Source of the DNA: Thermoplasmatota archaeon
GTDB lineage: Archaea > Thermoplasmatota > Thermoplasmata > UBA10834
DNA: 64,000 bases
Direction of reading: 5' to 3'
NCBI GenBank assembly: GCA_040751795.1
Contig: JBFMHR010000001.1
Span: forward strand, 1-64,000
This document shows, one piece after another, positions 19,575 through 45,116 of this stretch. The translations under genes and the position numbers were made by a program. Under the pieces are notes generated by a model. It saw only the letters and a program-made list of their open reading frames with translations, was not told the DNA's origin and made no database searches. Numbering within the stretch: position 1 is the stretch's first letter; every line of letters begins with the position of its first letter.

Positions 19575-21047
19575 ATGAAGATGATAGGATTCCCGAAGGG
19601 AAAGGTCGCGTTCCGGATGTTCCAGGATGAGGACCTGGAATCGCTTCACTGGGGAACGTTGGATGTGCTTGAGAACGCAGGCATCAAGGTCATCAGCGAC
19701 GAGTGCCTGAAGCTGCTCGAGGACGCGGGATGCTCCGTCGACAGGAAGACGAGCGTCGCGAGGATCCCCGGCAACCTGGTCGAGGAGGCCATAAGGAAGG
19801 CCAAGAAGAACATCACGCTCTGCGCCAGGAACCCGAAATACGACGTCGTGCTCGACGGGAGGAGGACCTACTGCTGCACCGACGGCAACGGCACGAGCGT
19901 CATGGACTTCGACACAGGGAAGAGGAGGATGTCGACGAGCAAGGACCTGGCCATGGTCGGCAAGGTCGCGAACGCCCTCGACTCCGCCCACATCTTCTGG
20001 CCGTGCATAAGCTGCCAGGACATCCCCGACTACTACCGCCACGTGGCGGACCTGAAGGTCGCGCTATCCAGCATCGAGAAGCACGTGCAGGTCGAGACGA
20101 CCAGCCACAGGCGCGAGGCGCAGTGGCTCATCAAGCTCGGCGCGGCGTTGGCCGGGGACGAGAAGGCGCTCAGGAGGAGGCCCATATTCTCCTCGATGCA
20201 CTGCCCGTTCTCCCCGCTCCAGCTCGACGGTGGCTCCACCGAGGGCGCCCTCGCGCTCGCGCGCGCGGGAGTGCCGATATCGTTCTACGGCATGCCCCAG
20301 GCAGGCATAACCGGGCCTGTCACCCTGGCGGGCTCGATAATAGTGAACAACGCCGAGGTGCTCGGCGGCCTGACCATGGCCCAGCTGACGGCGCCCGGCT
20401 CCCCCTTCATGTACGGGACGGGCGGGGCAGCCTTCGACATGAAGACCATGACCTGGGCCGGCGGCGGCCCGGAGAGGGCCCTGATATCCGCGGGCGCGGG
20501 GGAGCTCGCGCACCACTACGGCTTCCCGATACTGTGCGGCGGCATAGTCACGTCCGCCAAGGTCCCGGGGCCGCAGTCCTGCTACGAGAAGATGTCGAGC
20601 GGCCTGCCCCAGTTCTACGCGGGCTGCGACATGGTGGCTGGCCTCGGCCTGCTCGATGACGTCACCATGCTCTCGTACGAGCAGATGGTCATCGACAACG
20701 AGATGGCCAAGATCATGGCGAGGCTCGCGCAGGGCGTCGTCGTCGACGACGACCATATGGCCATCGACCTCATCAAGAAGGTAGGCCCCGGAGGCAGCTT
20801 CCTGCCCGAGAGGCACACTATCTCGTGGCTCAGCAAGGAGCACTTCATGACCGAGATAACGGACCGCAGGACGGGCGAGCTCTGGGAGGCCGACGGGAGG
20901 AAGAGCGTCGTCGACCGCGCCCGCGAGAAGGCCGCGAAGATCATGAAGGAGCACCAGGTGCAGCCCGTGCCCAAGGACGTCGCCCAGCAGTTCGAGGGGA
21001 TCGTCGCCTCGGCCGAGAAGGACATCAAGCAACACGGCCTGGACTGA
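19575..21047 (+). CDS. MttB/MtgB superfamily methyltransferase (non-pyrrolysine)
   Basis: SPLQLD, GITGPVTLAGSI...NAEVLGG, GLGLLD...SYEQMVID, IKKVGPGGSFL; no in-frame TAG. Confidence 0.87.
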   Translation: MKMIGFPKGKVAFRMFQDEDLESLHWGTLDVLENAGIKVISDECLKLLEDAGCSVDRKTSVARIPGNLVEEAIRKAKKNITLCARNPKYDVVLDGRRTYCCTDGNGTSVMDFDTGKRRMSTSKDLAMVGKVANALDSAHIFWPCISCQDIPDYYRHVADLKVALSSIEKHVQVETTSHRREAQWLIKLGAALAGDEKALRRRPIFSSMHCPFSPLQLDGGSTEGALALARAGVPISFYGMPQAGITGPVTLAGSIIVNNAEVLGGLTMAQLTAPGSPFMYGTGGAAFDMKTMTWAGGGPERALISAGAGELAHHYGFPILCGGIVTSAKVPGPQSCYEKMSSGLPQFYAGCDMVAGLGLLDDVTMLSYEQMVIDNEMAKIMARLAQGVVVDDDHMAIDLIKKVGPGGSFLPERHTISWLSKEHFMTEITDRRTGELWEADGRKSVVDRAREKAAKIMKEHQVQPVPKDVAQQFEGIVASAEKDIKQHGLD

Positions 21048-21178
21048 GTGCCTCAACAAAGTCTATTAGCACAGACCAGCTTCGGGCTGGAGAGGAGGCG
21101 GAGCGCCCCTCCAGCCCCGAGAAACCCCTTCCAAGGGTGTTCCACTTGATACCTTCCGAGCTGGTACGCGACTTCGAG

Positions 21179-22093
21179 ATGCAGATGAAGGAGCTGCGCA
21201 TAGGGCGCACGCCCCTCAGACGCGCCCAGAAGCTGGAGAAGAAGCTCGGCCTCCGCAGGCTCCACCTCAAGGTCGAGGGGGAGAACCCGTCGGGCACCCA
21301 CAAAGACAGGATGGCCCTGCTGCTGGCGCTCGACGCGAGGAGCAAGGGGGTCAGGACCCTGGCGGCCGTGACGTGCGGCAACTACGGCGCGGCCCTGGCG
21401 TACGTCTGCGGCAAGCTCGACATGCAGTGCAAGGTGTACGTCCCATCCACCTTCGCCGCGACCAGGAACAAGGACATCGAGGCGTACGGCGGGGAAGTAG
21501 TCGTGGCGGAGGGGGACTACGAGGCCGCCCTCAACGCGTCCCTCAGGGACATCGAGAGGAACAGGTGGTACAACGCCAACCCCGGAGGGACGAACAAGGG
21601 GATCGGGGTCTACTCCTACTCGTTCATCGCCCGGGAGATCGCGCAGGAGCTGGGGAGGCAGCCCGACTGGGCCGCCGTCCCGTTCGGGAACGGGACCGTC
21701 CTCGCCGGCGTGTGGCAGGGGTTCAGGGCGATGAGCATGAAGCCCAGGATGCTCGCCTACTCCAACAACAACTCCGCCGTGCACGGCCTCGCCTGCAAGT
21801 CGCGGGACCCGGTCCCGGTCCCGGACCTCACCATCACCGAGGTCAACGAGCCGCTGTCGGGCAACTTCCTCCTCGACGACAGGGAGGGCATGGACGCCAT
21901 CCTCGAGTCGAACGGGGCCGCGTTCGAGATCGGCGACGAAGAGCTGGTCAAGGCCTCCAGGCTCATCAAGGCCGAGGAGGGGATGGACGTCCTCCCGGCA
22001 TCGGCCGGGGCCATCACCGCCATCAAGCTCCTCGACTCCAAGAACCACACCTTCGTGGCCGTCCTGACGGGGAGGGGCCACGGCCACGGCTGA
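21179..22093 (+). CDS. Threonine synthase-like PLP-dependent enzyme
   Basis: GRTPL, EGENPSGTHKDR, TCGNYG, VPFGNGT. Confidence 0.82.
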   Translation: MQMKELRIGRTPLRRAQKLEKKLGLRRLHLKVEGENPSGTHKDRMALLLALDARSKGVRTLAAVTCGNYGAALAYVCGKLDMQCKVYVPSTFAATRNKDIEAYGGEVVVAEGDYEAALNASLRDIERNRWYNANPGGTNKGIGVYSYSFIAREIAQELGRQPDWAAVPFGNGTVLAGVWQGFRAMSMKPRMLAYSNNNSAVHGLACKSRDPVPVPDLTITEVNEPLSGNFLLDDREGMDAILESNGAAFEIGDEELVKASRLIKAEEGMDVLPASAGAITAIKLLDSKNHTFVAVLTGRGHGHG

Positions 22094-22176
22094 GCGATGG
22101 ACAGAAGTGGGCACCGCCCCAGTGGACAGTCCAGTCCAACCAACATATTAATACATCAAGGTACATTGCCAGCCCG

Positions 22177-22263
22177 ATGGACGCAGCCGCAGGTCATGCA
22201 GCAACGCTTCTTCTCGTCGTGACCCTAGGGGTCCCCGTCGACCTGCGGATCGAAGGCCTTTGA
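22177..22263 (+). CDS. Putative ilv leader peptide MDAAAGHAATLLLVVTLGVPVDLRIEGL
   Basis: ATG ~24 nt after TATTAATA (22146-22153); 11 of 28 residues are L/V/I; lies immediately upstream of ilvB. Confidence 0.65.
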   Translation: MDAAAGHAATLLLVVTLGVPVDLRIEGL

Positions 22264-22328
22264 CGGGCACGCGACCTCTGGGGTGTTGTGATGTCCGTCG
22301 GGGCAATGTCAAGGAGTGTGAACAAACG

Positions 22329-24008
22329 ATGAAGGGCGCGAGGGCCACGGTCGAGCTGCTGGAGAGACAGAACGTGGATGTGATGTTCGGCATCCCCGGC
22401 GGCGTCCTTCTCCCCTTCTACGACGAGCTGGTGCAGTCGAGGATCAGGCACATCCTCGTCAGGCACGAGCAGTGCGCGGCCCACATGGCCGACGGCTACG
22501 CCAGGGTGTCGAAGCGCCCCGGCGTGTGCGTGGCCACCTCGGGACCGGGGGCGACGAACCTCGTGACAGGGGTCGCGACCGCGTTCATGGACTCCTCCCC
22601 GATCGTGGCGCTCACCGGGCAGGTGGCGACCGGCGTGCTGGGCAACGACGCGTTCCAGGAGGCCGACGCCTTCAGCCTCATGATGCCCATAACGAAGCAC
22701 AACTTCAGGGTCACGGACCCAAAGGACCTGGCCGAGACCGTGAACAAGGCGTTCATGATCGCCACCACAGGAAGGTACGGCCCCGTACACATAGACCTCC
22801 CGACCGACATTCTCACGTCCGAAATAGCCGAGGAGGACCTGTCGAAGACCGCGAGGGTCCCCAAGCCGAAGAGGAACCTCTCCGGCCTGCTCGACGCCAT
22901 CAAGCTCCTGGAGTCGGCGGAGCGGCCGACCATAATGGTCGGAGGCGGGGTGGCGTGGTCCAGGGCGGGAGGGGAGATAACCCGTCTCGCGGAGATACTC
23001 ATGGCCCCCATCGTGACGACCCTCATGGCGAAGGGCTCGGTCCCGGAGGACCACCCCCTCGTGCTCGGGGTGTGCGGCATGCACGGGAGGCAGGTCGCCA
23101 ACTACGCGCTCAACAACTGCGACGTCCTCCTTGCGATAGGCACCCGCTTCAGCGACAGGGTGACGGGCAAGCTCAGCGAGTTCGGGGCGAAGACGAAGGT
23201 CGTCCACGTCGACATCGACTCCTCCGAGATCGGGAAGAACGTCAAGGGGAGGGTCGGGCTGGTGGGCGACGCCTGGACGGTCGTGAACGCCCTCATCGCA
23301 GGCCTCCAGAAGAGGAAGAAGAAGGACACCTGGATGGAGCGCATGAAGGCCCTCAACAGGGAGTGCTCCTGCGACTACGACCTGAGGTCGGACCCGATCA
23401 AGCCCCAGAAGGTCGTCCACGAGCTGTCGAAGAACCTCCCCGCCGACGCGATAGTGACCACGGAGGTGGGGCAGAACCAGATGTGGGCCTCCCACTTCTA
23501 CAAGTGCTACGGGAAGAGGATGTTCATCACATCCGGCGGGCTGGGCACCATGGGCTTCGGGTTCCCCGCCGCCCTCGGCGCGAAGCTGGCCCGCCCTGAG
23601 AGCGTCGTCGTGGACATCGCGGGGGACGGGAGCCTCCAGATGGTCTCGCACGAGTTCGCCACGGCGGTGGAGAACGACATACCGGTCGTGGTGTGCCTGC
23701 TCAACAACGGGTGGCTGGGCATGGTCAAGCAGTGGCAGAAGCACTTCTACGGCTCGAGGTACATGGCCACCAAGTTCAGCGGGACCCCGGATTTCGTGAA
23801 GCTCGCGGAGGCGTACGGCGCCGAGGCGCTCAGGGTGGAGAGGCACTCGGAGGTCGCGGAGGCCGTCAAGAGGGCGGCGAGGTGCGATGTCCCGATGCTC
23901 CTCGACTTCGCCGTGGACCCTGAGGAGGACGTCCTCCCCATGACGCCGCCGGGGAAGAGGTCCTCTGAGTGCATCAAGGGCAGGTGCCAGTGGAAAGGAG
24001 GTGCGTGA
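22329..24008 (+). CDS. ilvB: Acetolactate synthase large subunit
   Basis: GIPGG, RHEQCAAHMADGYAR, TSGPGATN, GDGS...NN TPP motif. Confidence 0.96.
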   Translation: MKGARATVELLERQNVDVMFGIPGGVLLPFYDELVQSRIRHILVRHEQCAAHMADGYARVSKRPGVCVATSGPGATNLVTGVATAFMDSSPIVALTGQVATGVLGNDAFQEADAFSLMMPITKHNFRVTDPKDLAETVNKAFMIATTGRYGPVHIDLPTDILTSEIAEEDLSKTARVPKPKRNLSGLLDAIKLLESAERPTIMVGGGVAWSRAGGEITRLAEILMAPIVTTLMAKGSVPEDHPLVLGVCGMHGRQVANYALNNCDVLLAIGTRFSDRVTGKLSEFGAKTKVVHVDIDSSEIGKNVKGRVGLVGDAWTVVNALIAGLQKRKKKDTWMERMKALNRECSCDYDLRSDPIKPQKVVHELSKNLPADAIVTTEVGQNQMWASHFYKCYGKRMFITSGGLGTMGFGFPAALGAKLARPESVVVDIAGDGSLQMVSHEFATAVENDIPVVVCLLNNGWLGMVKQWQKHFYGSRYMATKFSGTPDFVKLAEAYGAEALRVERHSEVAEAVKRAARCDVPMLLDFAVDPEEDVLPMTPPGKRSSECIKGRCQWKGGA

Positions 24009-24371
24009 ATGGAAGTGCTGATGCTGCTGGTGTACGACCAGCCCGGGGTCATGCAGAGGGTCATGGGCGAGTTCACCAGAAAGCGGATAAACGTGGAGAC
24101 CATCGTGGTCGGCAAGTGCGAGATGCCAGGGAGGGCCAGGATAGTCCTCTCCGTCGAGAGCAGGGAGAGAGCGATGAACGTCATCGAGCACCTCAGGGCG
24201 CTGCAGGAGGTCATCGAGGCCGACCTGGTCGCCCCCGAGAGGCACGAGGCATACGCGGTCCTCCTGGGGAAGGACGGCATCTGCAGGGTCACGGGCACGG
24301 TCGACGAGGTGGAGGCCCTGATCAAGAAGAGCCAGCCTCAGAGATACATAGAGGCGATGAACGCGATATGA
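24009..24371 (+). CDS. ilvN: Acetolactate synthase regulatory (ACT) subunit
   Basis: DQPGVMQRV...RINVETI ACT motif; directly follows ilvB. Confidence 0.85.
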   Translation: MEVLMLLVYDQPGVMQRVMGEFTRKRINVETIVVGKCEMPGRARIVLSVESRERAMNVIEHLRALQEVIEADLVAPERHEAYAVLLGKDGICRVTGTVDEVEALIKKSQPQRYIEAMNAI

Positions 24372-24387
24372 CGTGGGAGTGGTGACA

Positions 24388-25368
24388 ATGGCAAGGATGT
24401 ACTACAACAAGGACGCGAACCTCAACGTGCTGAAGGGGAAGAAGGTCGCGGTCGTAGGGTACGGCATACAGGGCAGGGCTCAGTCCCTGTGCCTCAGGGA
24501 CAGCGGCGTGGACGTGGTCGTGGGGCTGAAGTTCAGGGACGACTACTGGAAGCAGGCCAAGGCCGACAAGATGGAGATCATGGACATACCGGAGGCGGTC
24601 AGGGCCGCCGACATAGTCATGATGCTCATCCCGGACGAGGTCCAGAAGGCGGTTTACGACGCAGACGTCGCGCCCAACCTGAAGGAGGGCATGACACTGG
24701 ACTTCGCCCACGGGTTCAACATCCACTTCAAGCTGATAGTCCCGCCGAAGGACGTGGACGTCATCATGGTGGCGCCCAAGGGCCCCGGCGCCCTCGTGAG
24801 GGACACGTTCGTGGCGGGGGACGGCGTCCCCGCGCTCATAGCGGTCCACCAGGACCACACGGGCAGGGCCAAGAAGACGGCGCTCGCGATGGCCAAGGGC
24901 CTCGGCGCGACGAACCGCGGGGTCATCGAGACCACCTTCAAGGAGGAGACGGAGACGGACCTGTTCGGCGAGCAGGCGGACCTATGCGGAGGCGCCAGCG
25001 AGCTGGTCAAGAAGTCCTTCGAGGTGCTGGTCGAGGCCGGCTACCAGCCTGAGATAGCCTACTTCGAGGTGCTCCACGAGCTCAAGCTCATCATCGACCT
25101 GGTCCAGAAGGGCGGGGTCGAGGGGATGTGGGACAACGTCTCCAACACCGCCGAGTACGGCGGCAGGACCCGGGGCCCCAGGATCATCGACGCACGCGTG
25201 AAGGAGAGCATGAGGGCCGTCCTGAAGGACGTCCAGTCGGGCGCCTTCGCCAAGGAGTGGGTCGAGGAGTGCAACTCGGGGCTGCCGACGCTGACCAAGC
25301 TGAGGAATGAGGGCGAGAAGTCCCAGATCGAGGTCGTCGGCAGGTCCATCAGGAAGATGTTCAAGTAG
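24388..25368 (+). CDS. ilvC: Ketol-acid reductoisomerase
   Basis: GYGIQG, FAHGFNIH, MVAPKGPG, ETETDLFGEQ. Confidence 0.96.
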   Translation: MARMYYNKDANLNVLKGKKVAVVGYGIQGRAQSLCLRDSGVDVVVGLKFRDDYWKQAKADKMEIMDIPEAVRAADIVMMLIPDEVQKAVYDADVAPNLKEGMTLDFAHGFNIHFKLIVPPKDVDVIMVAPKGPGALVRDTFVAGDGVPALIAVHQDHTGRAKKTALAMAKGLGATNRGVIETTFKEETETDLFGEQADLCGGASELVKKSFEVLVEAGYQPEIAYFEVLHELKLIIDLVQKGGVEGMWDNVSNTAEYGGRTRGPRIIDARVKESMRAVLKDVQSGAFAKEWVEECNSGLPTLTKLRNEGEKSQIEVVGRSIRKMFK

Positions 25369-26241: not shown

Positions 26242-27165
26242 ATGGCGATAGAGCCGAGTGAGAGGATCTGGAAGAACGGCCAGCTGATACCGTGGAAGGA
26301 CGCGACCGTGCACGTGCTCACGCACGGGCTCCATTACGGGACCGGCGCGTTCGAGGGGATAAGGTGCTACGCGACCGACGGCGGGCCTGCGGTCTTCAGG
26401 CTCAGGGACCACATGGTGCGGCTCCACACCTCCGCGAAGGCGATCCAGATGAGGATACCCTACACGGTCGACCAGCTCTGCGAGGCGGCCAAGGAGACGG
26501 TCAGGACCAACGGGCTCTCCTCCTGCTACATACGCCCCATCGCGTTCTTCGGCGTCCTCGGCATCGGCGTCAACCCGATAGGCTACCCGGTCGAGACGTT
26601 CATAGTGGCGTTCCCGATGGGCGCCTACCTCGGCGACGAGGGCATGAGGAAGGGCATACGGGTGCACACGTCGTCCTGGCACAGGGCGCCTGTCGGCTCC
26701 GTCCCGTCGACGGCGAAGATCTGCGGCGACTACCTGAACAGCGCCCTCGCGGTCATGGAGGCCAAGATGAACGGCTTCGAGGAGACCGTCATGCTCAACG
26801 ACCTGCACATGGTCGCGGAGGGCTCCGGCGAGAACATATTCATGGTCAAGGGCGGGACGATATTCACTCCCCCGGCCAACGCGGGGATCCTCCCCGGGAT
26901 AACGAGGGACTCGGTCATGACGGTGGCCAGGGACCTCGGGCACGAGGTCGTCGAGAGGAACTTCTCGAGGGGCGAGCTCTTCATGGCGGACGAGCTGTTC
27001 TTCACCGGGACCGCCGCCGAGGTGACCCCCATCAGGGAGGTCGACAGGCGGCAGGTGGGGGAGGGTGTGCCCGGGCCGGTCACGCTGGAGGTCCAGAGGA
27101 CCTACCTCGACGCGGTCAAGGGCAAGCTGGATAGGTACCGCGGCTGGCTGGACCCGGTGCGCTGA
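26242..27165 (+). CDS. ilvE: Branched-chain amino acid aminotransferase
   Basis: LHYGTGAFEGIR, EGSGENIF, ILPGITR, FTGTAAEVTP. Confidence 0.95.
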   Translation: MAIEPSERIWKNGQLIPWKDATVHVLTHGLHYGTGAFEGIRCYATDGGPAVFRLRDHMVRLHTSAKAIQMRIPYTVDQLCEAAKETVRTNGLSSCYIRPIAFFGVLGIGVNPIGYPVETFIVAFPMGAYLGDEGMRKGIRVHTSSWHRAPVGSVPSTAKICGDYLNSALAVMEAKMNGFEETVMLNDLHMVAEGSGENIFMVKGGTIFTPPANAGILPGITRDSVMTVARDLGHEVVERNFSRGELFMADELFFTGTAAEVTPIREVDRRQVGEGVPGPVTLEVQRTYLDAVKGKLDRYRGWLDPVR

Positions 27166-27232
27166 GGGCCGGAGGGCAACCAATAAATACTCGCCCGGAC
27201 CATACATCGTCTGACGATTGTCATACGAAGGG

Positions 27233-35493: not shown

Positions 35494-35815
35494 GCCAGGA
35501 GAAGGCGGATGGCCGACGGTAGGCCCGTTCTCAGAACGGGCCGGCTGAGGAAAGTCCCCTCTCCAAGAGAAGGTGGGCCGCCAGAGCGGCAGGGCGAGAG
35601 TCCTGGCAAGGGCACAGAAACGGCACAGCCTCGGGATAACGTGATGATTCCCCTGGGGATGAAGTCTCCCGAGGACATGGTGAAACGGCGACACCCCACC
35701 GGAGCAAGCTCAAACGGCCGAACGATCTCTCATCGACGGCGGGTAGAGTGCAATAGTCGGATGCCATCACCGTCGCAAGACGGGAACAGAAAGGGGCTTA
35801 TGTCCTTCACCTGGC
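35494..35815 (+). ncRNA. rnpB: Archaeal RNase P RNA
   Basis: GAGGAAAGTCC (CR-I), ACAGAAA, GTGAAACGG, GGAGCAAG, AACAGAAAGGGGCTTAT (CR-V); P1 GCCAGG..GAAGG / CCTTC..CCTGGC. Confidence 0.95.
35790..35815 (+). repeat. Left att direct repeat AAAGGGGCTTATGTCCTTCACCTGGC
   Basis: Identical 26 bp at 47070-47095; forms the 3' end of rnpB. Confidence 0.93.
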
Positions 35816-35955
35816 TCTTATACCTTTATAAAGGGTATATGACAGAATGCACTTTCTGTCTCTCCCCGCATGGTCCTCCAGGGATTGCTCCGGCAATGGG
35901 AGGTCATACCCACCACAACAAAGTTTTACATGGCTTCTGAAGCATTTCCAAGTGG

Positions 35956-36588
35956 ATGCCGGGCAATCATGGAGAGATAAAGGCGGAGTTTCCGATATTC
36001 GCAGCCATGGATAAGGAAACCACCATGCTGAACCTATTCAGATTCGAAATGCGGAAGACTCGTCTGCAGTTCAAGAGAGTGAGCGATGACCTTGATGAAA
36101 GGAAAGCGACTTCAGGTTCAGCATTGACCAGAGAGGAAAATGCCAACAGTCAGGCGAAGCTCTTCGCTGACATTCACTTTCTACTAACATGTCTGAGTCG
36201 GCTCGGATCACTCTTCTACAGGATGAAAGGCTACTTTCCTGAGAACTCCAAACTGAGCGAAGTCGAGACTCGTGTCCGAAAGCGTCTTGATTTCTTCGGT
36301 GAAATCAGGAATGACTTGGAGCATGTGGAGGACAGGCCAGGCAAAGGAGTCAACATCCTTGGTAGCACCTTTGGCTCTGTCTTTCAATTCGATGACAAGC
36401 AGATAGATGTCGGCAGTCATCTCAGAGATGAGATCGAGACTTTCTTCACTGAAGTGGAATCGATATATGACCGAATATTAGTCGAGAGACGGAAATCGTT
36501 GGGACAGAAAACCGTACTGTATAGAACAGGCATAACAATACCCGGGAGCCCAGAAAATCCTCATTCATTCGATGAGACAAAGAATTAA
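35956..36588 (+). CDS. Hypothetical protein with HEPN-like Rx4H motif
   Basis: IRNDLEH in a helical protein. Confidence 0.6.
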   Translation: MPGNHGEIKAEFPIFAAMDKETTMLNLFRFEMRKTRLQFKRVSDDLDERKATSGSALTREENANSQAKLFADIHFLLTCLSRLGSLFYRMKGYFPENSKLSEVETRVRKRLDFFGEIRNDLEHVEDRPGKGVNILGSTFGSVFQFDDKQIDVGSHLRDEIETFFTEVESIYDRILVERRKSLGQKTVLYRTGITIPGSPENPHSFDETKN

Positions 36589-36631
36589 GGCGTCATCGCC
36601 CCGATGGATGAGTAGCGTCTGATTTTCAGGC

Positions 36632-37384
36632 CTATCTGCTTCTGGAGATGATGCCTCTCTTCTCTAATTCATCCAGATACTCATCCATTCCAGGCAAGTG
36701 TCCCAACGCCTCTGCCCAATCAAGGACAGACTTCGAATTGAGCTCCAATATCATGTCCCCCGGTGTGAGGAATAGGACCCTTTCAGGATCTGTCATGAAT
36801 CCCAATTCGAGAAGGTCCGCTCTCACCTCATCTTCGTACACCCAATGGAGATCATCTTCGATTCTCCGTATCTTGCCGAGCTGTTGGCCTATCTCATGAA
36901 TATCGAGACCTGCATAGTATGGGCTGTTATCGTTCAGCATTCTCACAATGAGATCTCGCAGAGGCCCATTCTGGAAGACCCGTATCTTCTGATGCTTGGG
37001 AGAACGATATGCCCGTCTCATTGCATCTCTAAGCCATCTTACTGCCGAGTCAAATTCCTTCTTTCCTGCATTAGGCGACAGTAGCGGGCATGGAGCATCC
37101 GGTGTCGAGAATATCATCAGACAGAGGTTCATGGCTTCCTCCTTTGACATTCTTCTCAGAGGTTTGTGATGATTGGGGCCTCGTACCTTCTCATAAGTGA
37201 TATGTGGTGCGAATCCTTCGTCATCACTGACAATACTCAAGTGGATGCCAATCGTGCCATCCGTTGATTCATCTCCCAGGGCCTTTACGAACGACTCCAC
37301 ATCGCTACACCACCGGAAAAGTATCCTGAATCGGATCAAGCCGTTGTCCTGAATCAGCACCTTGCGGAGTCGCTTCTTGGACAC
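36632..37384 (-). CDS. Hypothetical protein
   Basis: 250-aa ORF in the lower-GC region; no motif recognised. Confidence 0.65.
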   Translation of the reverse strand: MSKKRLRKVLIQDNGLIRFRILFRWCSDVESFVKALGDESTDGTIGIHLSIVSDDEGFAPHITYEKVRGPNHHKPLRRMSKEEAMNLCLMIFSTPDAPCPLLSPNAGKKEFDSAVRWLRDAMRRAYRSPKHQKIRVFQNGPLRDLIVRMLNDNSPYYAGLDIHEIGQQLGKIRRIEDDLHWVYEDEVRADLLELGFMTDPERVLFLTPGDMILELNSKSVLDWAEALGHLPGMDEYLDELEKRGIISRSR

Positions 37385-37492
37385 CGAATCTCATCTCCGA
37401 ATCATGGCATTATACCTCGGCCCATGGTTTCACTCTTCCCTCATGGCAAGCATGTGAATCCGAAACGAAACCTCAGTGACAATGGGAGCCAT

Positions 37493-37651
37493 TCAGACAT
37501 GCCGCTTCTTCTCTTTGGAATCTGGAGCGTCTTTCTCAGAGGCGCCAAGTTGTACGGTAGTTGTCCCCACCTGCACTCCAGCTTTATCCCAGTCCCCAAG
37601 GTCCGGCTTATCCCGTCTTCTGCTCTTGTCTTCTCGCTTCTTCTCTGTCAT
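37493..37651 (-). CDS. Micro-peptide 2 (DxxDWD..VGTxT motif)
   Basis: MTEKKREDKSRRRDKPDLGDWDKAGVQVGTTTVQLG...; GGGAG SD upstream. Confidence 0.6.
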   Translation of the reverse strand: MTEKKREDKSRRRDKPDLGDWDKAGVQVGTTTVQLGASEKDAPDSKEKKRHV

Positions 37652-37690
37652 GCGAGCACAACTCCCTTCAGTCACCATCCGAGTTCAGAC

Positions 37691-37822
37691 TCATTTGTCT
37701 GTCTTCTCCTTCTTGTGCTCCTTCTTGATGCTCTCAAGCGTGATTGTCCCCACATCCTTGCTGTCCCAATCTCTCATGTCTCGTTTCTGGCCTCTCCTCT
37801 TATTCTGATCCTCCTCACCCAT
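37691..37822 (-). CDS. Micro-peptide 1 (DxxDWD..VGTxT motif), 43 aa
   Basis: Manual translation MGEEDQNKRRGQKRDMRDWDSKDVGTITLESIKKEHKKEKTDK; starts 4 nt after the upstream stop. Confidence 0.6.
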   Translation of the reverse strand: MGEEDQNKRRGQKRDMRDWDSKDVGTITLESIKKEHKKEKTDK

Positions 37823-37826
37823 TCAA

Positions 37827-39029
37827 TCATCCCCATATCCTGTCCAGATTCCATACCACAACTAGCACTAATCCAATGAGAAAGGCAATGAACATGCCCT
37901 TGGCAAACCAAGCCTTGAAGACATTCTGACGATGATTATGCAAGAAGGAGTCATAGAGTTTCCTCGATATGATCATCTCATAATCCCTTGGTTCCCCTTT
38001 GCGATAGATGTCAATAATCTCCCCTATGTCAGCTCCACCTTTGAACTCCCTCACGAAGAATGCAATTACACCGAGAAAGGCAGCGACAAGAAGTGAGATC
38101 ACCCCGAGAATTCCGAAGTGTCCAACATAGCTACCCGAATCTAGATCCGCAACAGGTTCTGTCAGGGATACGATAAGGCCGAGGGACACAAAAACAAATC
38201 CCAGCATGACGCCTGTCTTGGAATCCAGTGACTCACAGTTCCGACTCTCCTGGTCAAACTGCCTCTGTATTTCGCCTGTGATAATCGAAAAGTCGTTCTT
38301 GCTGGCAGCACTGTTAGACTCGTCCATACCCTTGACCTCCTGATGTGATGAGCCGCAATCAGCAATGGGCATCTGCTCAACGGAACCCTCCTCCCGATTT
38401 CTAGGAGAATCTAGACCCAATGTACTGACAAGAGAGCTCTTGAATTTCCCAGATAGATTCATTTGGCGCCAGAAAAGGAAGTAGTACACCGCTAGAGTTG
38501 TGATTGCCGCAATCACTATGATTACTCCCCTTACACTCGCATCAACATCTATGGATCCGATTGCGATACCGAGCACAATCACCCACATGAAGTAGAATCC
38601 GGAGATGAGAATGTGAAGCACTATGCTGCTGGGAATTCCTTTGACTTGAGGACGAAAAGCTGAGTCCCCTTCCTGCCAGACTGCACACTCCTCCCGCATA
38701 GTGACCGCTCTCTGAAGCCACAGTGCTCTGTGAATCCACTCTATCTCATATCTCTGTGCTCTAAGGATTATCAAGAACCAGGCAGTTGAGATGAACATGC
38801 CTAGAACAGATAGCGCCATGATTATCATTGCCCACTCGGGGTGGTTTAGTGCACTCACGGCTGCCACGATCAAGACACCATTTGTAGCTGAATGGAGTGC
38901 ATTCGTGGACCAAGTCGTTGAGTCTTGACCTCTCTCCATAGCGTTCAATTGAGATAGTTGGTCCATCCCAAATCTGCCTGTGCCACTAGTCTTATCATGT
39001 ATCTTCTCCACAGCAGGAGCCCCTGGCAT
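37827..39029 (-). CDS. Two-domain membrane protein; C-terminal domain resembles Pycsar TM effectors
   Basis: N-domain with ~4 TM; C-domain LDSKTGVMLG...3 TM...NVFKAWF; in-frame internal ATG at 38327 with AGGAGGT SD. Confidence 0.65.
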   Translation of the reverse strand: MPGAPAVEKIHDKTSGTGRFGMDQLSQLNAMERGQDSTTWSTNALHSATNGVLIVAAVSALNHPEWAMIIMALSVLGMFISTAWFLIILRAQRYEIEWIHRALWLQRAVTMREECAVWQEGDSAFRPQVKGIPSSIVLHILISGFYFMWVIVLGIAIGSIDVDASVRGVIIVIAAITTLAVYYFLFWRQMNLSGKFKSSLVSTLGLDSPRNREEGSVEQMPIADCGSSHQEVKGMDESNSAASKNDFSIITGEIQRQFDQESRNCESLDSKTGVMLGFVFVSLGLIVSLTEPVADLDSGSYVGHFGILGVISLLVAAFLGVIAFFVREFKGGADIGEIIDIYRKGEPRDYEMIISRKLYDSFLHNHRQNVFKAWFAKGMFIAFLIGLVLVVVWNLDRIWG

Positions 39030-39033
39030 CAGG

Positions 39034-39783
39034 TCAGCCTCCTCCGGCAAATCTAACGCTAAATGCTTCACAGATCGCCTTCACGAATGAATGATAGTGC
39101 AACGGGCTCCCCAGCTGGGGGGCTGGTGGCTCACTCACCAGCTTAGCCGAATGTCCCTTCACATTGTCGTAGTCAACGACAATGACTCCGACTGCGTCGA
39201 TCTCATTAGGTTTGCTAGGCGATGGGCCAGTCTTCGAGGCTCTAGGCAAATCCTCAAACAGCTTCACTGTCTCTGTGACTAGTCGTTCAATGTTTGCATG
39301 CATTGTTGTCTCTCCAGCTCTAAGAGGCGACATGAAGCTTGCAGACATGTTCACGACAACGAGCCCACCAACAATCGTCCGTGGATTTGACATGTGGAGG
39401 ATACTTGAGAAGGAATTCAGGTCCCTCTGTCTATTCCTTCTCGCTTTTCCGTGTTCCGTCATGATTGTCTTCGCATCTACTGCCACCCACAACTCATCGG
39501 GAGGAGCACAGATTGACTCCCCCTCGCCGCCAGGCACCCTTTGCGCATCTCGGGAAGTGGGTCCGATGGCAAGGTCAATGTTCCAGCCTAATGGCACCCC
39601 CAACCCAGGCGGTTGGTTCTGGTTATAGCAGATTCTCCCCTTTGCAGCCATTTCTGCAAAAGCAGGGCATGAAGCCATCATATCCTCCAAGAGGAGCTCG
39701 CAGAGTCGGTCGCCATGCTTCGATGATCTTGGGTGATAACCGTTTGACTCCAGATACCGCACGAATTCTCTGTCCGCCTTCAA
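39034..39783 (-). CDS. Putative Type II restriction endonuclease (PD-(D/E)xK)
   Basis: IDLAIG...VAVDAK motif; directly downstream of a DNA methyltransferase. Confidence 0.68.
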   Translation of the reverse strand: MKADREFVRYLESNGYHPRSSKHGDRLCELLLEDMMASCPAFAEMAAKGRICYNQNQPPGLGVPLGWNIDLAIGPTSRDAQRVPGGEGESICAPPDELWVAVDAKTIMTEHGKARRNRQRDLNSFSSILHMSNPRTIVGGLVVVNMSASFMSPLRAGETTMHANIERLVTETVKLFEDLPRASKTGPSPSKPNEIDAVGVIVVDYDNVKGHSAKLVSEPPAPQLGSPLHYHSFVKAICEAFSVRFAGGG

Positions 39784-39847
39784 CTCCAGACCACTCTGCG
39801 GATGTAAGGCCTAGGTAGTATGTTAATTTTCGGCAGAGAAGGATGTC

Positions 39848-40912
39848 CTATTTCTTGGTGATGGATAGCCTGCGGTTCATCTGCAGGGTGCCTATTTCAT
39901 TCCTGATGCGCTTCTCGGCCAGTCGAAGATAGTCGCTGTCAATCTCGAAGCCTACGCTATTCCTGCCAGTCTTCATTGCCGCGAGATTGGTTGTCCCTGT
40001 CCCCGTGAACGGATCGAGGACGGTGTCTCCCGCGAAACTGAACATGCGTATGAGCCTCAGAGGTATCTCAAGAGGAAACGGAGCCGGGTGTTTTGCAGTG
40101 CTCTCCCCCGGAACATCCGCCCATATCTGCTGGAACCAAACTCTATGTTTGTCAGCAGGGACTATGCTCAGCAATCGAGTCTTGGTATCAGGCTTGCGAT
40201 ACGATCCCGGCTTCCTCTCCATAAGTATGAATTCAACATCATTCTTCACCACACCCCCGGGCTCGTAGGGCTTACCGAGGAAGCCTGCCCCATTCCCTTC
40301 AGCCTCGAAGGCTGCATTCGCAATCTTGTACCAGAATATCGGAGCTAGATTGTCAAAACCTAGCTTCCTGCAGTGGCCTTGAATGTCGGCATGCAGTGGG
40401 AAAACTTGGTGTCGCCCATGCTTCCTGCGGCTCAGGCAGACGTCGCCGACGACAATAATCAACCTCCCGCCTTCCACGAGGACTCTGTGGCATTCTGCCC
40501 ACACCTTGTCGAGTTCCTTCAAGAAGTCCTCGTAATCGGTAACATAGCCAAGTTGTCCCTCGGTTATGTTGTACTTCTTCAGAGTCCAGTATGGGGGGGA
40601 GGTTACTACTAGGTGTACAGACTCATCCTCTACGCCTTTCAGATTCCTAGCATCGCCTTGAATAAGCCTATGTTCGGTCGGCAGACTAGCTATCTCCTCT
40701 TCAACGGCGGACAGGAAGGCAGAATCCTTACTCGCCTTAGGTATGAACATATCTGCCTGCCTGGGAGTCATGCTAGATGGCAGATTGAAAGACTTGGACA
40801 GTTCGTCCACAGACATTTCGATGGACCAATTGCCAGAGCACGTACTTGAACTGTTCGCAGAGGTCTCCGGAAATGCTCCTTTGCCTAGTAATAGCCCGGA
40901 GTCATGCGCCAT
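39848..40912 (-). CDS. Site-specific DNA methyltransferase, beta class (SPPY, probably N4-C)
   Basis: VTSPPYW, HPAPFP, VLDPFTGTGTT. Confidence 0.93.
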   Translation of the reverse strand: MAHDSGLLLGKGAFPETSANSSSTCSGNWSIEMSVDELSKSFNLPSSMTPRQADMFIPKASKDSAFLSAVEEEIASLPTEHRLIQGDARNLKGVEDESVHLVVTSPPYWTLKKYNITEGQLGYVTDYEDFLKELDKVWAECHRVLVEGGRLIIVVGDVCLSRRKHGRHQVFPLHADIQGHCRKLGFDNLAPIFWYKIANAAFEAEGNGAGFLGKPYEPGGVVKNDVEFILMERKPGSYRKPDTKTRLLSIVPADKHRVWFQQIWADVPGESTAKHPAPFPLEIPLRLIRMFSFAGDTVLDPFTGTGTTNLAAMKTGRNSVGFEIDSDYLRLAEKRIRNEIGTLQMNRRLSITKK

Positions 40913-42039
40913 GACGTGCTACCCTCCTTCATAGAACGGTGTTCGACAAGGGAGACGAGCCTTTCGAGCTTCTCATCAGAAATCTCCCCATTAAGGTACT
41001 TCAGGAGGATCATATCTCTGATGCGGTCTGATCTCTCAGGCCCCTCATCTATCGACTCGGCACCGAATCCTGCGTCCTCCTCGGGCAGGGCTCTCTGAGA
41101 CACGCTTGCGGACTCACCACCAAATGCCCTGTCATACGCTTGTCTCCTGCTCTTTTCACTCAAATGCGTGTATCTCTGCACATCGTCCAGACTCTTATGC
41201 CTTGACTGAGCCTGAATGAAGGATGCAGACAGCCCGCTCTCGGCCATATGTGTGATCATGCTGTGCCTGAAGATGTGGGGATGGACGTTCTTCTCGATTC
41301 CTGCTCGAAATGCCGTCTTCTTCACCATCATCCAGAGATTCCTCCTTGTCATTGGCCTCCTGCCCTCTGTGAGGAATACATAGTCTTCGTACCCGCTCTC
41401 TGGCGCTGGCCTACCCGCTTTAAGGTATCTTGCTACGGCTTGGACGGCCTCATCTGAGAGATTGACGAAGGAGTAATCCTTCCCCTTTCCCGCATGTACT
41501 CTGAGGCGCTTCTTGTCGAGATCAAGATTGGCGACCCTCACGCCGATGGCTTCACTAGCCCTTAGCCCACCATAGTACATCAAGCAGATGAGGGCATAAT
41601 CTCTCAACGAGGTGTCTCTCTCGGCCTGGAACCCATTCTCCCCGATCTTCGACCTCTTCGCTTCGTCAAGCACCCGCCTGACTTCTTCCTCTGTCAGAGG
41701 AACCTTCTCCTTCTCAACCTGCTTCGGGAGTTTCATCCTAAGGTCATGGCGCTCGATAACCTGCGATGTATAGCAGTTTACGGCTGCAAGCATGCTACAC
41801 ATGGTATTCTCACAGTATTTCTCTGCCAGGTGAGCCTTCCATGCCTGCATGTCGGCCTTCTGAAGCTCTAGAACGGGCTTTCCGATGAATTCTAGGCACA
41901 ATCTCAGACTCCGAGTGTACGAGGTCGCAGTAGCCTCTGTACGCTTCTCTGCCCTCAGAAATGCCTCGAATCGTTCAACCTGCTCCTGAACCTGCTGCTC
42001 AGTGTTCACACACCCTAGAGACTGCTCTCTCGTACTCAA
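40885..42039 (-). CDS. Tyrosine recombinase/integrase
   Basis: GLRASE (R), GKGK (K), HPHIFRHS (HxxR), RHKSLDDVQRYTH (H, Y). Confidence 0.95.
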   Translation of the reverse strand: MSTREQSLGCVNTEQQVQEQVERFEAFLRAEKRTEATATSYTRSLRLCLEFIGKPVLELQKADMQAWKAHLAEKYCENTMCSMLAAVNCYTSQVIERHDLRMKLPKQVEKEKVPLTEEEVRRVLDEAKRSKIGENGFQAERDTSLRDYALICLMYYGGLRASEAIGVRVANLDLDKKRLRVHAGKGKDYSFVNLSDEAVQAVARYLKAGRPAPESGYEDYVFLTEGRRPMTRRNLWMMVKKTAFRAGIEKNVHPHIFRHSMITHMAESGLSASFIQAQSRHKSLDDVQRYTHLSEKSRRQAYDRAFGGESASVSQRALPEEDAGFGAESIDEGPERSDRIRDMILLKYLNGEISDEKLERLVSLVEHRSMKEGSTSWRMTPGYY

Positions 42040-42141
42040 GCTGCTTCACCGAGCCTGAGAATGCAGTCCCTGACAATAAAGGTTTTCGAGGCAGGCAGGC
42101 AAAGCTCCCAAAAGCCCTTTGGTGAAGCAGCTATTGAGTAC
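42032..42141 (-). promoter_or_regulatory. Inverted repeat covering the integrase SD/start and enclosing a BRE-TATA promoter
   Basis: GTACTCAAGCTGCTTCACC (42032-42050) vs GGTGAAGCAGCTATTGAGTAC (42121-42141); minus-strand CGAAAACCTTTATTG at 42088-42074. Confidence 0.65.
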
Positions 42142-42202
42142 AATACCTGCCTGCTATCCCGACGAGGCACCAAAGAGGAACAGGGTTGATATATGTTCCG
42201 AA

Positions 42203-42466
42203 TCAGGTGTCATCGCCCCCCTTCCCCTGGAACTTGCCCTCGATAGCCATTCGGACATGCCTTGCAGACAATCGGGCTTTACGCCTCTCCCCCAATTGAG
42301 CTCTAAGGAAGTTCTCCCTATCATGGATCGAAGACGCTCTGACAGCGATGGAGATTGCCTCATTCTCGAGGTGAGATTTGAGAGTTTCAACGGCCGCGCG
42401 CTCAATCTTCCGTTCTGGAGCCTTCTGTCCCAAGAGCATCCGGACGGACCGGAGGGAGATGGTCAT
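42203..42466 (-). CDS. Putative histone-fold protein
   Basis: ISLRSVRMLL / ERKIERAAVETLKSHLENEAISIAVRA / RKARLSARHVRMAI fit the alpha1-L1-alpha2-L2-alpha3 pattern. Confidence 0.62.
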   Translation of the reverse strand: MTISLRSVRMLLGQKAPERKIERAAVETLKSHLENEAISIAVRASSIHDRENFLRAQLGERRKARLSARHVRMAIEGKFQGKGGDDT

Positions 42467-42753
42467 GAGCCCTCCTGCTGTTCAGCATCCAGTTGCGACT
42501 CCCGATTCTCGATCTTTGGGAGGAACCTCTCAAACTCCTTCCCTTTGCGCCACCGCCACTGCGTCTGTTCGTTTATCAACCCTCGAACCCGGGAAAGCCT
42601 GTAGTATGAATCTGCGGTTCGCCGATCAATGCCCAACCCCGCATCAACAACCACCTCTTGCCAGTCATTTCGACCATAGTAACGACTGTCATCACAGCAG
42701 AGGTGGATTGTCTTCGCAAGGGCCTCCAGTTTCTTGGCTTCATTTTTGACCAT
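42463..42753 (-). CDS. Small winged-helix-like protein
   Basis: GIDRRTADSYYRLSRVRGLI helix-wing pattern; ATGA overlap with the next gene. Confidence 0.55.
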   Translation of the reverse strand: MVKNEAKKLEALAKTIHLCCDDSRYYGRNDWQEVVVDAGLGIDRRTADSYYRLSRVRGLINEQTQWRWRKGKEFERFLPKIENRESQLDAEQQEGS

Positions 42754-42776
42754 AGGCCACCCCCGCCGCATGCTTA

Positions 42777-42902
42777 TGTGTGTGTGAGTGTGCAACTAAG
42801 AGAGAAGGACCTCTCTCAAGACAATACATATTATACGACATCACAGATAGAAATCTGTTCAGAGAAGGGATTCTCTCTAGGGCGTGCACACACTCACACA
42901 CA
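42777..42902. repeat. Long imperfect palindrome with AT-rich core
   Basis: TGTGTGTGAGTGTGCA...AGAGAGAA / TTCTCTCT...TGCACACACTCACACACA. Confidence 0.7.
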
Positions 42903-42982
42903 ATCCTGATAACACCCCTAGGAGCCCTTCCATTGTCTCCGATCCTGACTTCCTTCGAGTACATCCCATCCCTCCTAGTGTA

Positions 42983-43354
42983 TCACTTCGTCGTCTTGAC
43001 CTCCCGAAACAATCTCGCTGGGAGCTGGTCAATTGGGTCAACCGTTATGCTAGGAAACTCAGAAATCACCGACTCCCTGCTTATCAATGGCTCATGTTGC
43101 TCCTTATACCAGCAACTCTCGCAGAGTCCTCGGTGGGCAAGGGCAATCAATTGGGAAGGTCCTCTTTGGCCTGATGGGAGTCTTGGGGTCTTGTCAGTAC
43201 CTGCTAATGTAAACCCCGCTCGTTCTCTCGCCAGAAGCTCAAGAACCACAAATCTGAGGAGACCTGATAGACTCTCATACCCTCGAGAGGCCTGTATTTG
43301 CCCGAGCGCTGCTGCATCTTCATCGTCTAGTCTGAAAGAGATAGACCTACTCAC
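42983..43354 (-). CDS. Ribbon-helix-helix protein
   Basis: SISFRLDDEDAAALGQI...SLSGLLRFVV; C-terminal CxxC. Confidence 0.72.
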   Translation of the reverse strand: MSRSISFRLDDEDAAALGQIQASRGYESLSGLLRFVVLELLARERAGFTLAGTDKTPRLPSGQRGPSQLIALAHRGLCESCWYKEQHEPLISRESVISEFPSITVDPIDQLPARLFREVKTTK

Positions 43355-44413: not shown

Positions 44414-44526
44414 CAGTGACAAGAGAACCCGGCTGCGGAAACATGATAGGGATTAGTCGATGAAGGCTATAGGGGTAGAGGAAAGCCCTTAAGCCATCGC
44501 AAATGATTTGGATATTGGGAAAGGAA

Positions 44527-45051: not shown

Positions 45052-45116
45052 GAAGAAGCGATAGTGGCGAAGGGAAGCTCTTAAATCGTGCCTGGGGATT
45101 TCATAGGGTGATAGAC

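Follow-up and report, generated by a model that had tools for sequence, protein, structure and literature searches.

In bacteria, the coupling of transcription to translation has its textbook example in leader-peptide attenuation, and among the branched-chain amino acid (BCAA) operons its classical form is seen in the E. coli ilvBN, ilvGMEDA and leu leaders. Bacteria also possess leader-peptide attenuators that depend on Rho, such as the tna, mgtA and corA leaders; to our knowledge, Rho is absent in archaea. Archaea too couple transcription and translation, but they terminate transcription differently, and as far as we know the question of whether they put this coupling to regulatory use is still open. 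The ilvB leaders of Corynebacterium, Mycobacterium and Streptomyces are described as having ORFs that overlap candidate terminator hairpins with poly-U runs behind them (PMC1262725), and the C. glutamicum leader peptide is reportedly formed without a ribosome-binding site (Morbach 2000, cited in PMC13158618). The mycobacterial polycysteine small ORFs (sORFs) are presented as leaderless attenuators, the proposal being that a ribosome stalled on them prevents an inhibitory structure in the mRNA (10.1101/834739). For archaea, Ribo-seq studies have likened 5'-UTR sORFs to uORFs or genes for leader peptides (PMC10117724) and labeled them potential uORFs (PMC11456600); a search of the full-text literature for an archaeal BCAA leader-peptide switch returned only bacterial cases.

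Here, we examine a window of 64,000 nucleotides from a Thermoplasmata archaeon, in which a 28-codon ORF rich in Ile, Leu and Val (ILV) codons upstream of ilvB resembles an amino-acid-sensing switch of a kind for which our literature search found bacterial descriptions only. The genes putatively under its control occupy 22329..25368 on the forward strand, as do the leader features described below, and comprise ilvB (22329-24008, start ATG at 22329; Pfam TPP_enzyme N/M/C), ilvN (24009-24371; Pfam ACT_AHAS_ss) and ilvC (24373-25368; Pfam KARI_N/C), with ilvE (26242-27165) also found 3' of them. The promoter part of the leader (22140..22153) consists of a BRE-like element, CCAACA, and after it the TATA box TATTAATA at 22146-22153, which can be read directly. 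This 8-mer starts 31 nt upstream of the uORF ATG at 22177, with the TATA center at -27.5, and the archaeal start site is set by a TATA box centered near -26/-27. This ATG is not preceded by a Shine-Dalgarno (SD) motif. Judged from this arrangement, the ilvBNC transcript probably starts at the ATG at 22177 or 1 nt before it, and with this predicted start the 28-codon leader ORF would be translated first. The SD of ilvB itself, AAGGAGTG (22311..22318), includes AAGGAG at 22311-22316, and GGAGTGTG is invariant in the six related sequences.

Like the E. coli BCAA leaders, the locus combines an ILV-rich short ORF directly 5' of a BCAA operon with overlapping alternative helices and with minor codons at the regulatory positions. 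Unlike them, the archaeal ORF lacks an SD and apparently lies at the 5' end of the transcript behind a TATA box, in a host with another RNA polymerase and another mode of termination. The actinobacterial ilvB leaders share the ILV-run short ORF 5' of ilvB(N)C, and that of C. glutamicum shares the missing ribosome-binding site. Further, as in the mycobacterial Cys system, the predicted leaderless sensory ORF opens a biosynthetic operon as its first cistron, contains consecutive codons for the cognate amino acid of the pathway, and would exert control independently of an intrinsic terminator; the amino acid and the domain of life are different.

The putative leaderless leader ORF, uORF1 (22177..22263), runs from the ATG at 22177-22179 through 28 sense codons to a TGA at 22261-22263 and encodes the peptide MDAAAGHAATLLLVVTLGVPVDLRIEGL. 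Leu, Val or Ile account for 11/28 codons as against 4.8 expected (P=0.001; 3000 stop-free shuffles), so that the cluster of end-product codons typical of a classical attenuator is present; the main run, CTT CTT CTC GTC GTG ACC CTA (L L L V V T L), spans codons 11-17 (22207..22227). The first-pass annotation had reported the TATA box, the 28-codon ORF with its LLLVVTL run, six helix arms and the ilvB SD following them, and inspection of the sequence finds each of these in place. Its remark that CTT and CTA are rare holds insofar as they make up 2.0% and 1.2% of the 1123 Leu codons in 33 genes of the window, but the rarity is not Leu-specific because minor codons (e.g., GCA four times, GGT and GAA) are used across the whole of uORF1.

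Comparison with five close relatives (Thermoplasmata MAG loci L001, L010, L002, L003 and L004, with IlvB identities of 84-93%) shows that the 28 codons, the start and the position of the stop are retained in 5/5. The stop alternates between TGA and TAA at this one fixed position, and the last 12 codons differ between the window and L001 by four changes, of which four are synonymous and none non-synonymous. The C-terminal half is kept as a peptide, LGV[PL]VDLRI, inside the window's clade. Beyond these relatives, unrelated ILV-rich, TATA-spaced short ORFs occur 5' of ilvB in six Methanomassiliicoccales (L005-L009, L012), and the same design is found in three Archaeoglobaceae (L063, L075, L079) as well as in L021 and L052. 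The TATA box starts 28-32 nt from the start codon, with its center at -24.5 to -28.5, in 17/18 of the archaeal ilvB leaders examined, and the ILV excess over shuffles reaches P<0.05 in 14/18 leader ORFs. Thus, the conserved BCAA-codon uORFs that had been proposed as a check on the initial reading do exist, in all five relatives and in other archaeal lineages; across lineages composition and promoter spacing are shared and the sequence differs.

In a census of TATA-spaced ORFs of 12-45 codons from 51 archaeal sources (488 kb), at least five ILV residues within a 7-residue window, our definition of ILV-rich, were found in 17/24 ORFs ending at most 150 nt upstream of ilvB versus 52/550 elsewhere; with at least six, the counts are 11/24 and 5/550, respectively. 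A comparable ORF was present in 1/29 bacterial ilvB upstream regions of the same set. A search of the 51 archaeal sources, in which very few starts of other biosynthetic operons are sampled, for leader ORFs carrying runs of any other amino acid yielded no convincing case. The start codon is GTG in 4/6 Methanomassiliicoccales uORFs, and GUG on leaderless mRNAs is reportedly poorly used in Haloferax.

A very improbable reading of these data is that the region, just past the start site, goes untranslated and functions as an RNA element or as the DNA operator of a protein regulator (e.g., an Lrp-family factor), with the open frame being incidental. It would accommodate the nearly invariant 27-nt block CTAGGGGTCC..GTCGACCTGCGGATC (22225..22251, codons 17-25), in which 0/8 synonymous sites differ from L002 and 0/8 from L004 as against 38-44% of ilvB third positions, the palindromes GTCGAC and CTAG, and the codon usage of uORF1, which resembles non-coding DNA in scoring below 98.8% of 416 gene windows. 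However, the spacing from TATA box to start codon is fixed, the stop codons interchange, the changes relative to L001 are only synonymous, ORF lengths vary by whole codons, and ILV-rich ORFs recur in other orders with unrelated nucleotide sequences; additionally, the G.U-containing and compensatory pairs of the hairpin P2 (see below) favor an RNA over a DNA palindrome. The exact pattern defined by the block is confined, among 80 loci scanned with the window itself outside the scan, to L002, L004 and L010, with no further copy elsewhere.

Only marginally better placed, and still very unlikely, is a translated uORF without any sensing role, acting as a constitutive translation enhancer through ribosome delivery or reinitiation, or encoding a functional micropeptide. 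The peptide conservation of the C-terminal half within the window's clade would fit the latter, and bacterial leader ORFs have been proposed to boost translation by reinitiation (PMC4833913). Yet between lineages composition alone is conserved and sequence is not, which is the signature of regulatory codons, and the 48-67 nt gap between uORF and ilvB, which contains a stable hairpin in 12 leaders, is unfavorable to reinitiation. A membrane helix needs a hydrophobic span of about 18-20 residues; the longest [ILVFMWAC] run measures five residues in the window and 3-6 in 17/18 leaders, which rules against a small membrane protein. On the sequence evidence as a whole, we judge this to be a real leader peptide of the BCAA type, probably leaderless and probably translated, and its mechanism is something we can only infer.

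The first-pass annotation had further proposed three competing helices, 1:2, 2:3 and 3:4, two of which are kept among the six related sequences. Helix P1 (1:2) joins its 5' arm CCGCAGGTC (22187..22195) by nine pairs to the 3' arm GACCTGCGG (22240..22248, codons 22-24), the latter being invariant in all six; 87% of alignment cells are paired, there is no covariation, and the central A-U is a U.U in L002-L004. The hairpin P2, an extended form of 3:4 recovered by comparison and folding, has a 5' arm at 22256..22269 that includes the uORF stop (22261-63) and a 3' arm, TGTCCGT.GGGGC, at 22292..22304. Its 13 pairs are formed in 96% of cells and include G.U-containing pairs and three altered on both sides, with 5/500 shuffles reaching its score; hence, of the covariation sought in relatives, it is 3:4 that provides compensatory changes, though the counts are small because the six sequences fall in only two subclades (the window, L010 and L001 versus L002-L004). 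Folded alone, the hairpin (22253-22307) has a predicted energy of -28.1 kcal/mol (z=-3.45; 0/200 shuffles as stable), and the whole-leader fold is of ordinary stability (z=-0.23). Hairpins analogous to P2 lie at or just past the uORF stop in 6/6 Methanomassiliicoccales leaders, four of which have ORFs of 22, 23, 24 and 26 codons with the stop likewise abutting the hairpin. P2 is absent from the Archaeoglobaceae leaders, and therefore no single mechanism can serve all lineages.

Helix 2:3, in contrast, does not rise above shuffles across the six relatives (326/500 as good). Of these sequences, only the window, L010 and L001 have a strong version, about 20 bp long when extended and nearly equal to 3:4 in energy: segment 2 against the P2 5' arm and loop gives -36.2, -30.3 and -25.9 kcal/mol (p=0.007, 0.03 and 0.07), as compared with P2 energies of -28.1, -31.4 and -27.2 kcal/mol. 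Within this subclade, the element ACCCTAGGGGTC of the nearly invariant block is predicted to pair with the P2 loop; no partner for the block was found in L002-L004. Pairing of the uORF 5' end with its own ILV-codon region is more stable than in shuffles in 8/18 leaders, and that of the window is not special in this respect (p=0.68). Searches against Rfam 15 gave only two chance matches, both outside the leader, at E<=10 in 21000-23500, and at the gathering score only RNase P and a tRNA in the whole window and nothing relevant in 16 related loci.

The presence of 1:2, 2:3 and 3:4 in the window, the conservation of the first and last, and the near-equality of 2:3 and 3:4 in its subclade evoke a bacterial-type transcription attenuator, in which 3:4 would terminate and 2:3 would act as the antiterminator upon a stall. 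Termination would have to be factor-dependent since, as had been noted at the outset, a U-tract is lacking: between the uORF stop and ilvB (22264-22328) no T-run exceeds two. Archaeal intrinsic and aCPSF1-assisted termination both reportedly require U-tracts, and two gene-end regions do not suffice to show the terminator habits of this genome. In the actinobacterial leaders, by contrast, poly-U follows the candidate terminator hairpin, and in E. coli the uORF stop does not lie inside the last hairpin as it does here. For 3:4 as a terminator, the sign is wrong. The ILV run occupies nt 31-51 of the predicted RNA and runs into the 5' arm of 2:3, which takes up nt 45-65; a ribosome covers about 13-15 nt ahead of its A site. 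Because the ILV codons lie just before and inside segment 2, and not in segment 1 as in the bacterial ilv attenuators to which the layout had been likened, a ribosome stalled on them would mask segment 2 and favor 3:4. Hence, 3:4 is more likely the ON-state fold than a terminator. With an intrinsic terminator and codons placed so as to free segment 2 both missing, and with 2:3 not kept in L002-L004 (p 0.51-0.80), we regard such a three-helix attenuator as quite unlikely.

Another alternative dispenses with termination: the pyrimidine-rich Leu/Val codons could pair directly with the SD or start codon of ilvB and be covered by a stalled ribosome, which would free the initiation site, leaving P2 as scaffolding. 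The predicted minimum free energy fold of the window's leader indeed pairs ACGCTTCTT / ACGCUUCUU (22204-12) with AAGGAGTGT / AAGGAGUGU (22311-19) over 9 bp, and it is the rare CUU rather than the usual CUC that lets AAGGAG be matched by U-A and U-G pairs. The predicted probability of the SD being unpaired rises from 0.03 while the ribosome occupies codons 1-3 to 0.54-0.70 once its A site is on codons 11-15. Similar opening is predicted for L002, L004, L001, L063, L075 and L052, and GUUCUCGUA in the L075 uORF would pair with the ilvB AUG region (p=0.037). The same mechanism is documented for the mycobacterial Cys sORFs (10.1101/834739), where pairing of the sORF with the ribosome-binding site is demonstrated.

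For the archaeal leaders, such pairing could not be set apart from shuffled controls. SD accessibility in the free leader compared with uORF-shuffled leaders is significant in 0/17, and the duplex between the uORF and the translation initiation region, tested against dinucleotide shuffles, reaches p<0.05 in just 2/17 with p=0.05 in one more. Ribosome-position scans, the first of which permitted base pairs across the ribosome, show consistent SD opening in about 7/17 leaders; L010, L003 and most Methanomassiliicoccales (L006-L009, L012) have no predicted opening, and in L005 it appears only at the last codons. In scans with constrained or truncated folding, the "stalled" and "at stop" states show no consistent difference. 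Direct masking would also leave the embedding of the stop codon in a conserved hairpin unaccounted for, and we consider it an unlikely explanation. An erm/cat-type translational attenuation was discarded since the SD (from 22311) lies outside the P2 3' arm, which ends at 22304. A CCUC in Methanomassiliicoccales prompted a test of whether the P2 3' arm pairs with the SD region as an anti-SD; this is significant in 1/12 leaders (L008), with L012 being suggestive.

Starting from what is observed, namely a conserved ORF with an ILV bias and a set distance from its promoter, together with the helices P1 and P2, we favor, with moderate confidence, the reading in which uORF1 senses charged Leu-, Val- and Ile-tRNA through ribosome speed and ties the folding of P2 to ilvBNC expression. 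When BCAA are scarce, the ribosome would stall at codons 10-21, 5' of P2; P2 (22256-22304) would then fold, the SD-pairing Leu codons of the window's leader would be covered, and ilvBNC would be expressed. With BCAA in ample supply, the ribosome would reach the stop codon and sit on the P2 5' arm, which in the window's subclade allows the competing 2:3 fold to form; the 3' half of P2, rich in G and U, would then be single-stranded and expression would drop. The ILV codons L23, I25 and L28 are exceptions, since a ribosome stalling on them would itself keep P2 open. Translation of the uORF, stalling and the sign of regulation are what we infer from this layout, as is, above all, the effector step, for which the candidates are that the SD or start codon is captured, or that a factor for termination or cleavage (e.g., FttA/aCPSF1) loads on the exposed strand. 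The latter parallels the Rho-dependent attenuators, in that the position of the ribosome would decide which single-stranded RNA is left for a termination factor, and it gives the right sign provided that a site for factor loading or cleavage is concealed in P2; unlike in bacteria, FttA/aCPSF1 would be the putative archaeal analog of Rho.

A broader conjecture, which we hold to be unlikely but worth stating, is that terminator-free, leaderless, ribosome-mediated amino-acid attenuators arose in several archaeal lineages, namely the window's Thermoplasmata clade, Methanomassiliicoccales and Archaeoglobaceae, with a stop-codon hairpin that folds only upon a ribosome stall 5' of it and so hides a single-stranded G/U-rich stretch from a termination or cleavage factor (FttA/aCPSF1). 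If true, archaea would have their own equivalent of Rho-dependent attenuation, resting on the coupling of transcription and translation. A second uORF, of an M-R-D type, in Bathyarchaeia may belong with these attenuators. The conserved ILV-rich leaderless uORF 5' of ilvB in several archaeal groups offers a concrete, testable case, is of relevance to engineered BCAA overproduction in archaea, and supplies a search image for other pathways: a TATA box, about 23 nt, a start codon and a run of cognate codons.

Translational coupling through a second small ORF was also considered and rejected, its frame not being kept in the remaining leaders. In the window, L001, L010, L008 and L012, this ORF begins within the 3' arm of P2 and terminates at the ilvB ATG; the resulting ATGA overlap is automatic because the second codon of ilvB begins with A.

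The archaeal origin of the window is indicated by an archaeal RNase P RNA (35497-35812, 182 bits) and an archaeal-type pheT, and a single IlvB scan, which recovered 80 loci, places its nearest relatives among Thermoplasmata MAGs. A gap of 235 nt separates the end of a threonine-synthase-like pyridoxal-phosphate (PLP) gene at 22093 from the ilvB ATG at 22329, which is followed by ilvN, ilvC and, further downstream, ilvE. Direct reading of the sequence recovered every leader element claimed in the first-pass annotation: on the forward strand, a TATA box TATTAATA (22146-53), a 28-codon uORF from ATG 22177 to TGA 22261-63 encoding MDAAAGHAATLLLVVTLGVPVDLRIEGL, the codon run CTT CTT CTC GTC GTG ACC CTA (22207-27) and an AAGGAG (22311-16), along with the six arms of helices 1:2 (22187-95 with 22240-48), 2:3 (22234-41 with 22260-67) and 3:4 (22262-69 with 22292-99). 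The uORF peptide contains 11 Leu, Val or Ile (ILV) residues as against 4.8 in stop-free shuffles (P=0.001). The GC content of the window is 62%, and GC3 in its real genes is about 0.93; CTT and CTA are indeed rare as had been supposed (2.0% and 1.2% of 1123 Leu codons), but this is not specific to the regulatory codons, as minor codons occur throughout the uORF, its overall codon score lies below that of 98.8% of 416 gene windows, and the non-ILV codons are equally unadapted in several relatives.

The uORF rich in branched-chain amino acid (BCAA) codons, whose presence in related genomes was checked, is conserved in all five close relatives (L001, L010, L002, L003 and L004; 84-93% IlvB identity), each with a T(A/T)TTAATA box starting 31-32 nt before the ATG and 28 codons ending at the same position in TAA or TGA. 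The N-terminal halves of the peptides vary freely (e.g., MREPAGQGGQTP vs MDAAAGHAAT), with an I/L-L-V-V-L core and a tail LGV[PL]VDLRI being retained. In the last 12 codons, the window and L001 differ by four changes, all synonymous, with 36% of ilvB synonymous sites differing. Further, codons 17-25 show 0/8 synonymous differences between the window and either L002 or L004, where 38-44% would be expected, pointing to a nucleotide-level constraint additional to coding. The stretch 22225-22234 (CTAGGGGTCC), with its very rare CTA codon, shows little or no variation across the six relatives; no pairing partner for it was found in L002-L004.

In each of several distant lineages, ilvB has its own upstream region with an unrelated short ORF of like properties: six Methanomassiliicoccales (peptides ending, e.g., in SLLGVVVVLIR, SVVGIIIR or AVVIIIS), three Archaeoglobaceae (e.g., PVAIIVVH), the loci L021 and L052, and the DHVE2 locus L031, whose version has a Shine-Dalgarno sequence (SD). 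In 17/18 leaders the TATA box is centred at -24.5 to -28.5 with respect to the start codon, the geometry expected of leaderless mRNAs. A blind census of TATA-spaced ORFs of 12-45 codons in 51 archaeal sources (488 kb), scored by the number of ILV in any 7-residue window, found at least five in 17 and at least six in 11 of the 24 ORFs ending up to 150 nt upstream of ilvB, as against 52 and five of 550 elsewhere; these 17 ILV-rich ORFs represent roughly five independent lineages rather than 17 independent events. Bacterial ilvB upstream regions of the same set reach a score of at least six in only 1/29. The longest hydrophobic run is 3-6 residues in 17/18 peptides, less than a membrane helix needs. 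Between lineages the composition persists although the sequence does not, and this, combined with the constant distance to the promoter, is what marks a regulatory leader peptide. The core of the interpretation, an archaeal BCAA leader peptide that is probably leaderless, holds, and the uORF is probably a translated and selected ILV-rich leader ORF.

The 159-nt leader is not unusually stable overall (z=-0.23), whereas hairpin 3:4 alone is (-28.1 kcal/mol, z=-3.45, matched by 0/200 shuffles). The expectation of covarying helices, assessed on a six-sequence alignment of the window and its five relatives, was borne out for 3:4 only. This hairpin, whose 5' arm contains the uORF stop codon, extends to 13 pairs (22256-69 with 22292-22304), with 96% of cells paired, three pairs changed on both sides, several switches between G.U and A-U, and a score reached by 5/500 shuffles. 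Helix 1:2 persists without covariation, with 87% of cells paired and a U.U central pair in three sequences, while 2:3 shows no excess over shuffles (326/500 as good). In the subclade of the window, L010 and L001, 2:3 belongs to a much longer alternative, with ACCCUAGGGGUC..CCCGUCGA pairing with the 5' arm and loop of 3:4 (-36.2, -30.3 and -25.9 kcal/mol; p=0.007, 0.03 and 0.07) at about the stability of 3:4; nothing comparable was found in L002-L004 (p=0.51-0.80). The Methanomassiliicoccales possess an analogous hairpin of 11 pairs, two with double changes, whose first base is the third base of the stop codon in 4/6 and lies a few bases further on in 2/6. In many leaders the 5'-terminal bases of the RNA, at times including the start codon, are predicted to pair with the ILV-codon region; self-folding of the uORF is more stable than in shuffles (p<=0.033) for 8/18 leaders, the window not being among these. 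The Archaeoglobaceae share this closing helix but have no hairpin 3' of the stop, and their ilvB begins 24-30 nt beyond the uORF. A second small ORF, MSVGAMSRSVNKR from ATG 22291 (22288/22291-22332), starts within the 3' arm of extended 3:4 and its TGA overlaps the ilvB ATG (ATGA). L001, L010, L008 and L012 have it as well. Both clades share the start motif (A/G)TGTCC in the 3' arm, but not its frame with respect to ilvB.

In RNA coordinates the ILV run spans nt 31-51; with typical footprint sizes, a ribosome stalled there would extend to about nt 45-65. Such a ribosome would mask the 5' arm of 2:3 and not segment 1, so stalling would favour 3:4; one arriving at the stop codon would cover the 5' arm of 3:4, keeping this hairpin from forming. 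As the sensible sign for biosynthetic genes would be that stalling turns expression on, 3:4 would be the ON-state fold and not a terminator, with which the lack of any U-run, already remarked in the first-pass annotation, is consistent; a bacterial three-helix terminator is unlikely as written. Three versions of a translational output were compared with shuffled controls. The window itself makes a convincing case: a 9-bp ACGCUUCUU:AAGGAGUGU pairing is predicted, with the unpaired probability of the SD rising from 0.03 to 0.54-0.70 with the A site on codons 11-15. Over the whole family, however, no version exceeds its controls: pairing of ILV codons with the SD or start codon stood out in 2/17 leaders, general SD accessibility in 0/17, and the freed 3' arm of 3:4 as an anti-SD in 1/12. 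Alternatively, a factor such as FttA/aCPSF1 could in the OFF state load or cleave at the G/U-rich 3' half of the hairpin when this is single-stranded, a possibility which the sign of regulation fits. On balance, we lean slightly towards the BCAA sensor model as stated.

In their principle of working, these leaders would resemble bacterial ilv/leu leader peptides, and most closely the actinobacterial leaderless versions (PMC1262725; 10.1101/834739). The proposed layout of a bacterial ilv attenuator does not apply, as two defining features of the classical type fail: the intrinsic terminator is missing and the regulatory codons are placed differently. The RBS pairing that defines the mycobacterial type (10.1101/834739) could not be demonstrated above shuffled controls across the family (2/17, 0/17). 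We therefore regard the archaeal leader as a variant rather than a member of these types. A literature search for archaeal attenuators returned bacterial cases only, and, with most subscription journals outside its reach, calling the archaeal leaders undescribed is provisional. In Haloferax, sORFs in 5'-UTRs have been likened to uORFs or leader peptide genes (PMC10117724), and those of M. mazei are possibly uORFs (PMC11456600).

Around the operon, a perfect palindrome, TGGAC A GTCCA (22123-22133), was noted by eye 13 nt 5' of the TATA box, with similar ATGGACA..TGTCCAT repeats at the equivalent place in L010; it could be a 3' structure of the upstream gene or a regulator site. Further upstream, an uninterrupted MttB-family methyltransferase ORF (19575-21047, 490 aa) scores 484.8 against the NCBIfam cut-off of 525 for the pyrrolysine enzyme and has no in-frame amber codon, and is thus a non-Pyl MttB homologue. 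The ensuing PLP gene is listed as beginning at 20825, inside the MttB ORF, a start probably placed too far upstream. Immediately 3' of the ilvE stop, where no T-rich terminator is visible, CAACCAATAAATAC (27177-27190) resembles the ilv promoter (CCAACCAACATATTAATAC) and is followed by a small ORF. The roughly 12 kb that follow the RNase P RNA (about 35700-47700) contain no long GC3-rich ORF; they may be foreign or otherwise atypical DNA.

Among 17 Bathyarchaeia-type loci examined, 12 (L018, L024, L028, L029, L033, L035, L038, L039, L041, L064, L066 and L076) carry another type of conserved short ORF, situated some 100-190 nt upstream of ilvB; the remaining five have a coding gene directly upstream. 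It comprises GGAGG, 6-9 nt, ATG or GTG, and then AGG GAT ... CTC; L076 has ACG at the start position and an ATG two codons upstream. Rfam gave no match on L033 and L038. The conserved part of the peptide, M-R-D-[RCNSI]-x-L (e.g., MRDRHLNSWDRWVLIL), is the N-terminus and not an ILV run, several ending in V/L/I, and the archaea may thus possess two types of ilvB leader.
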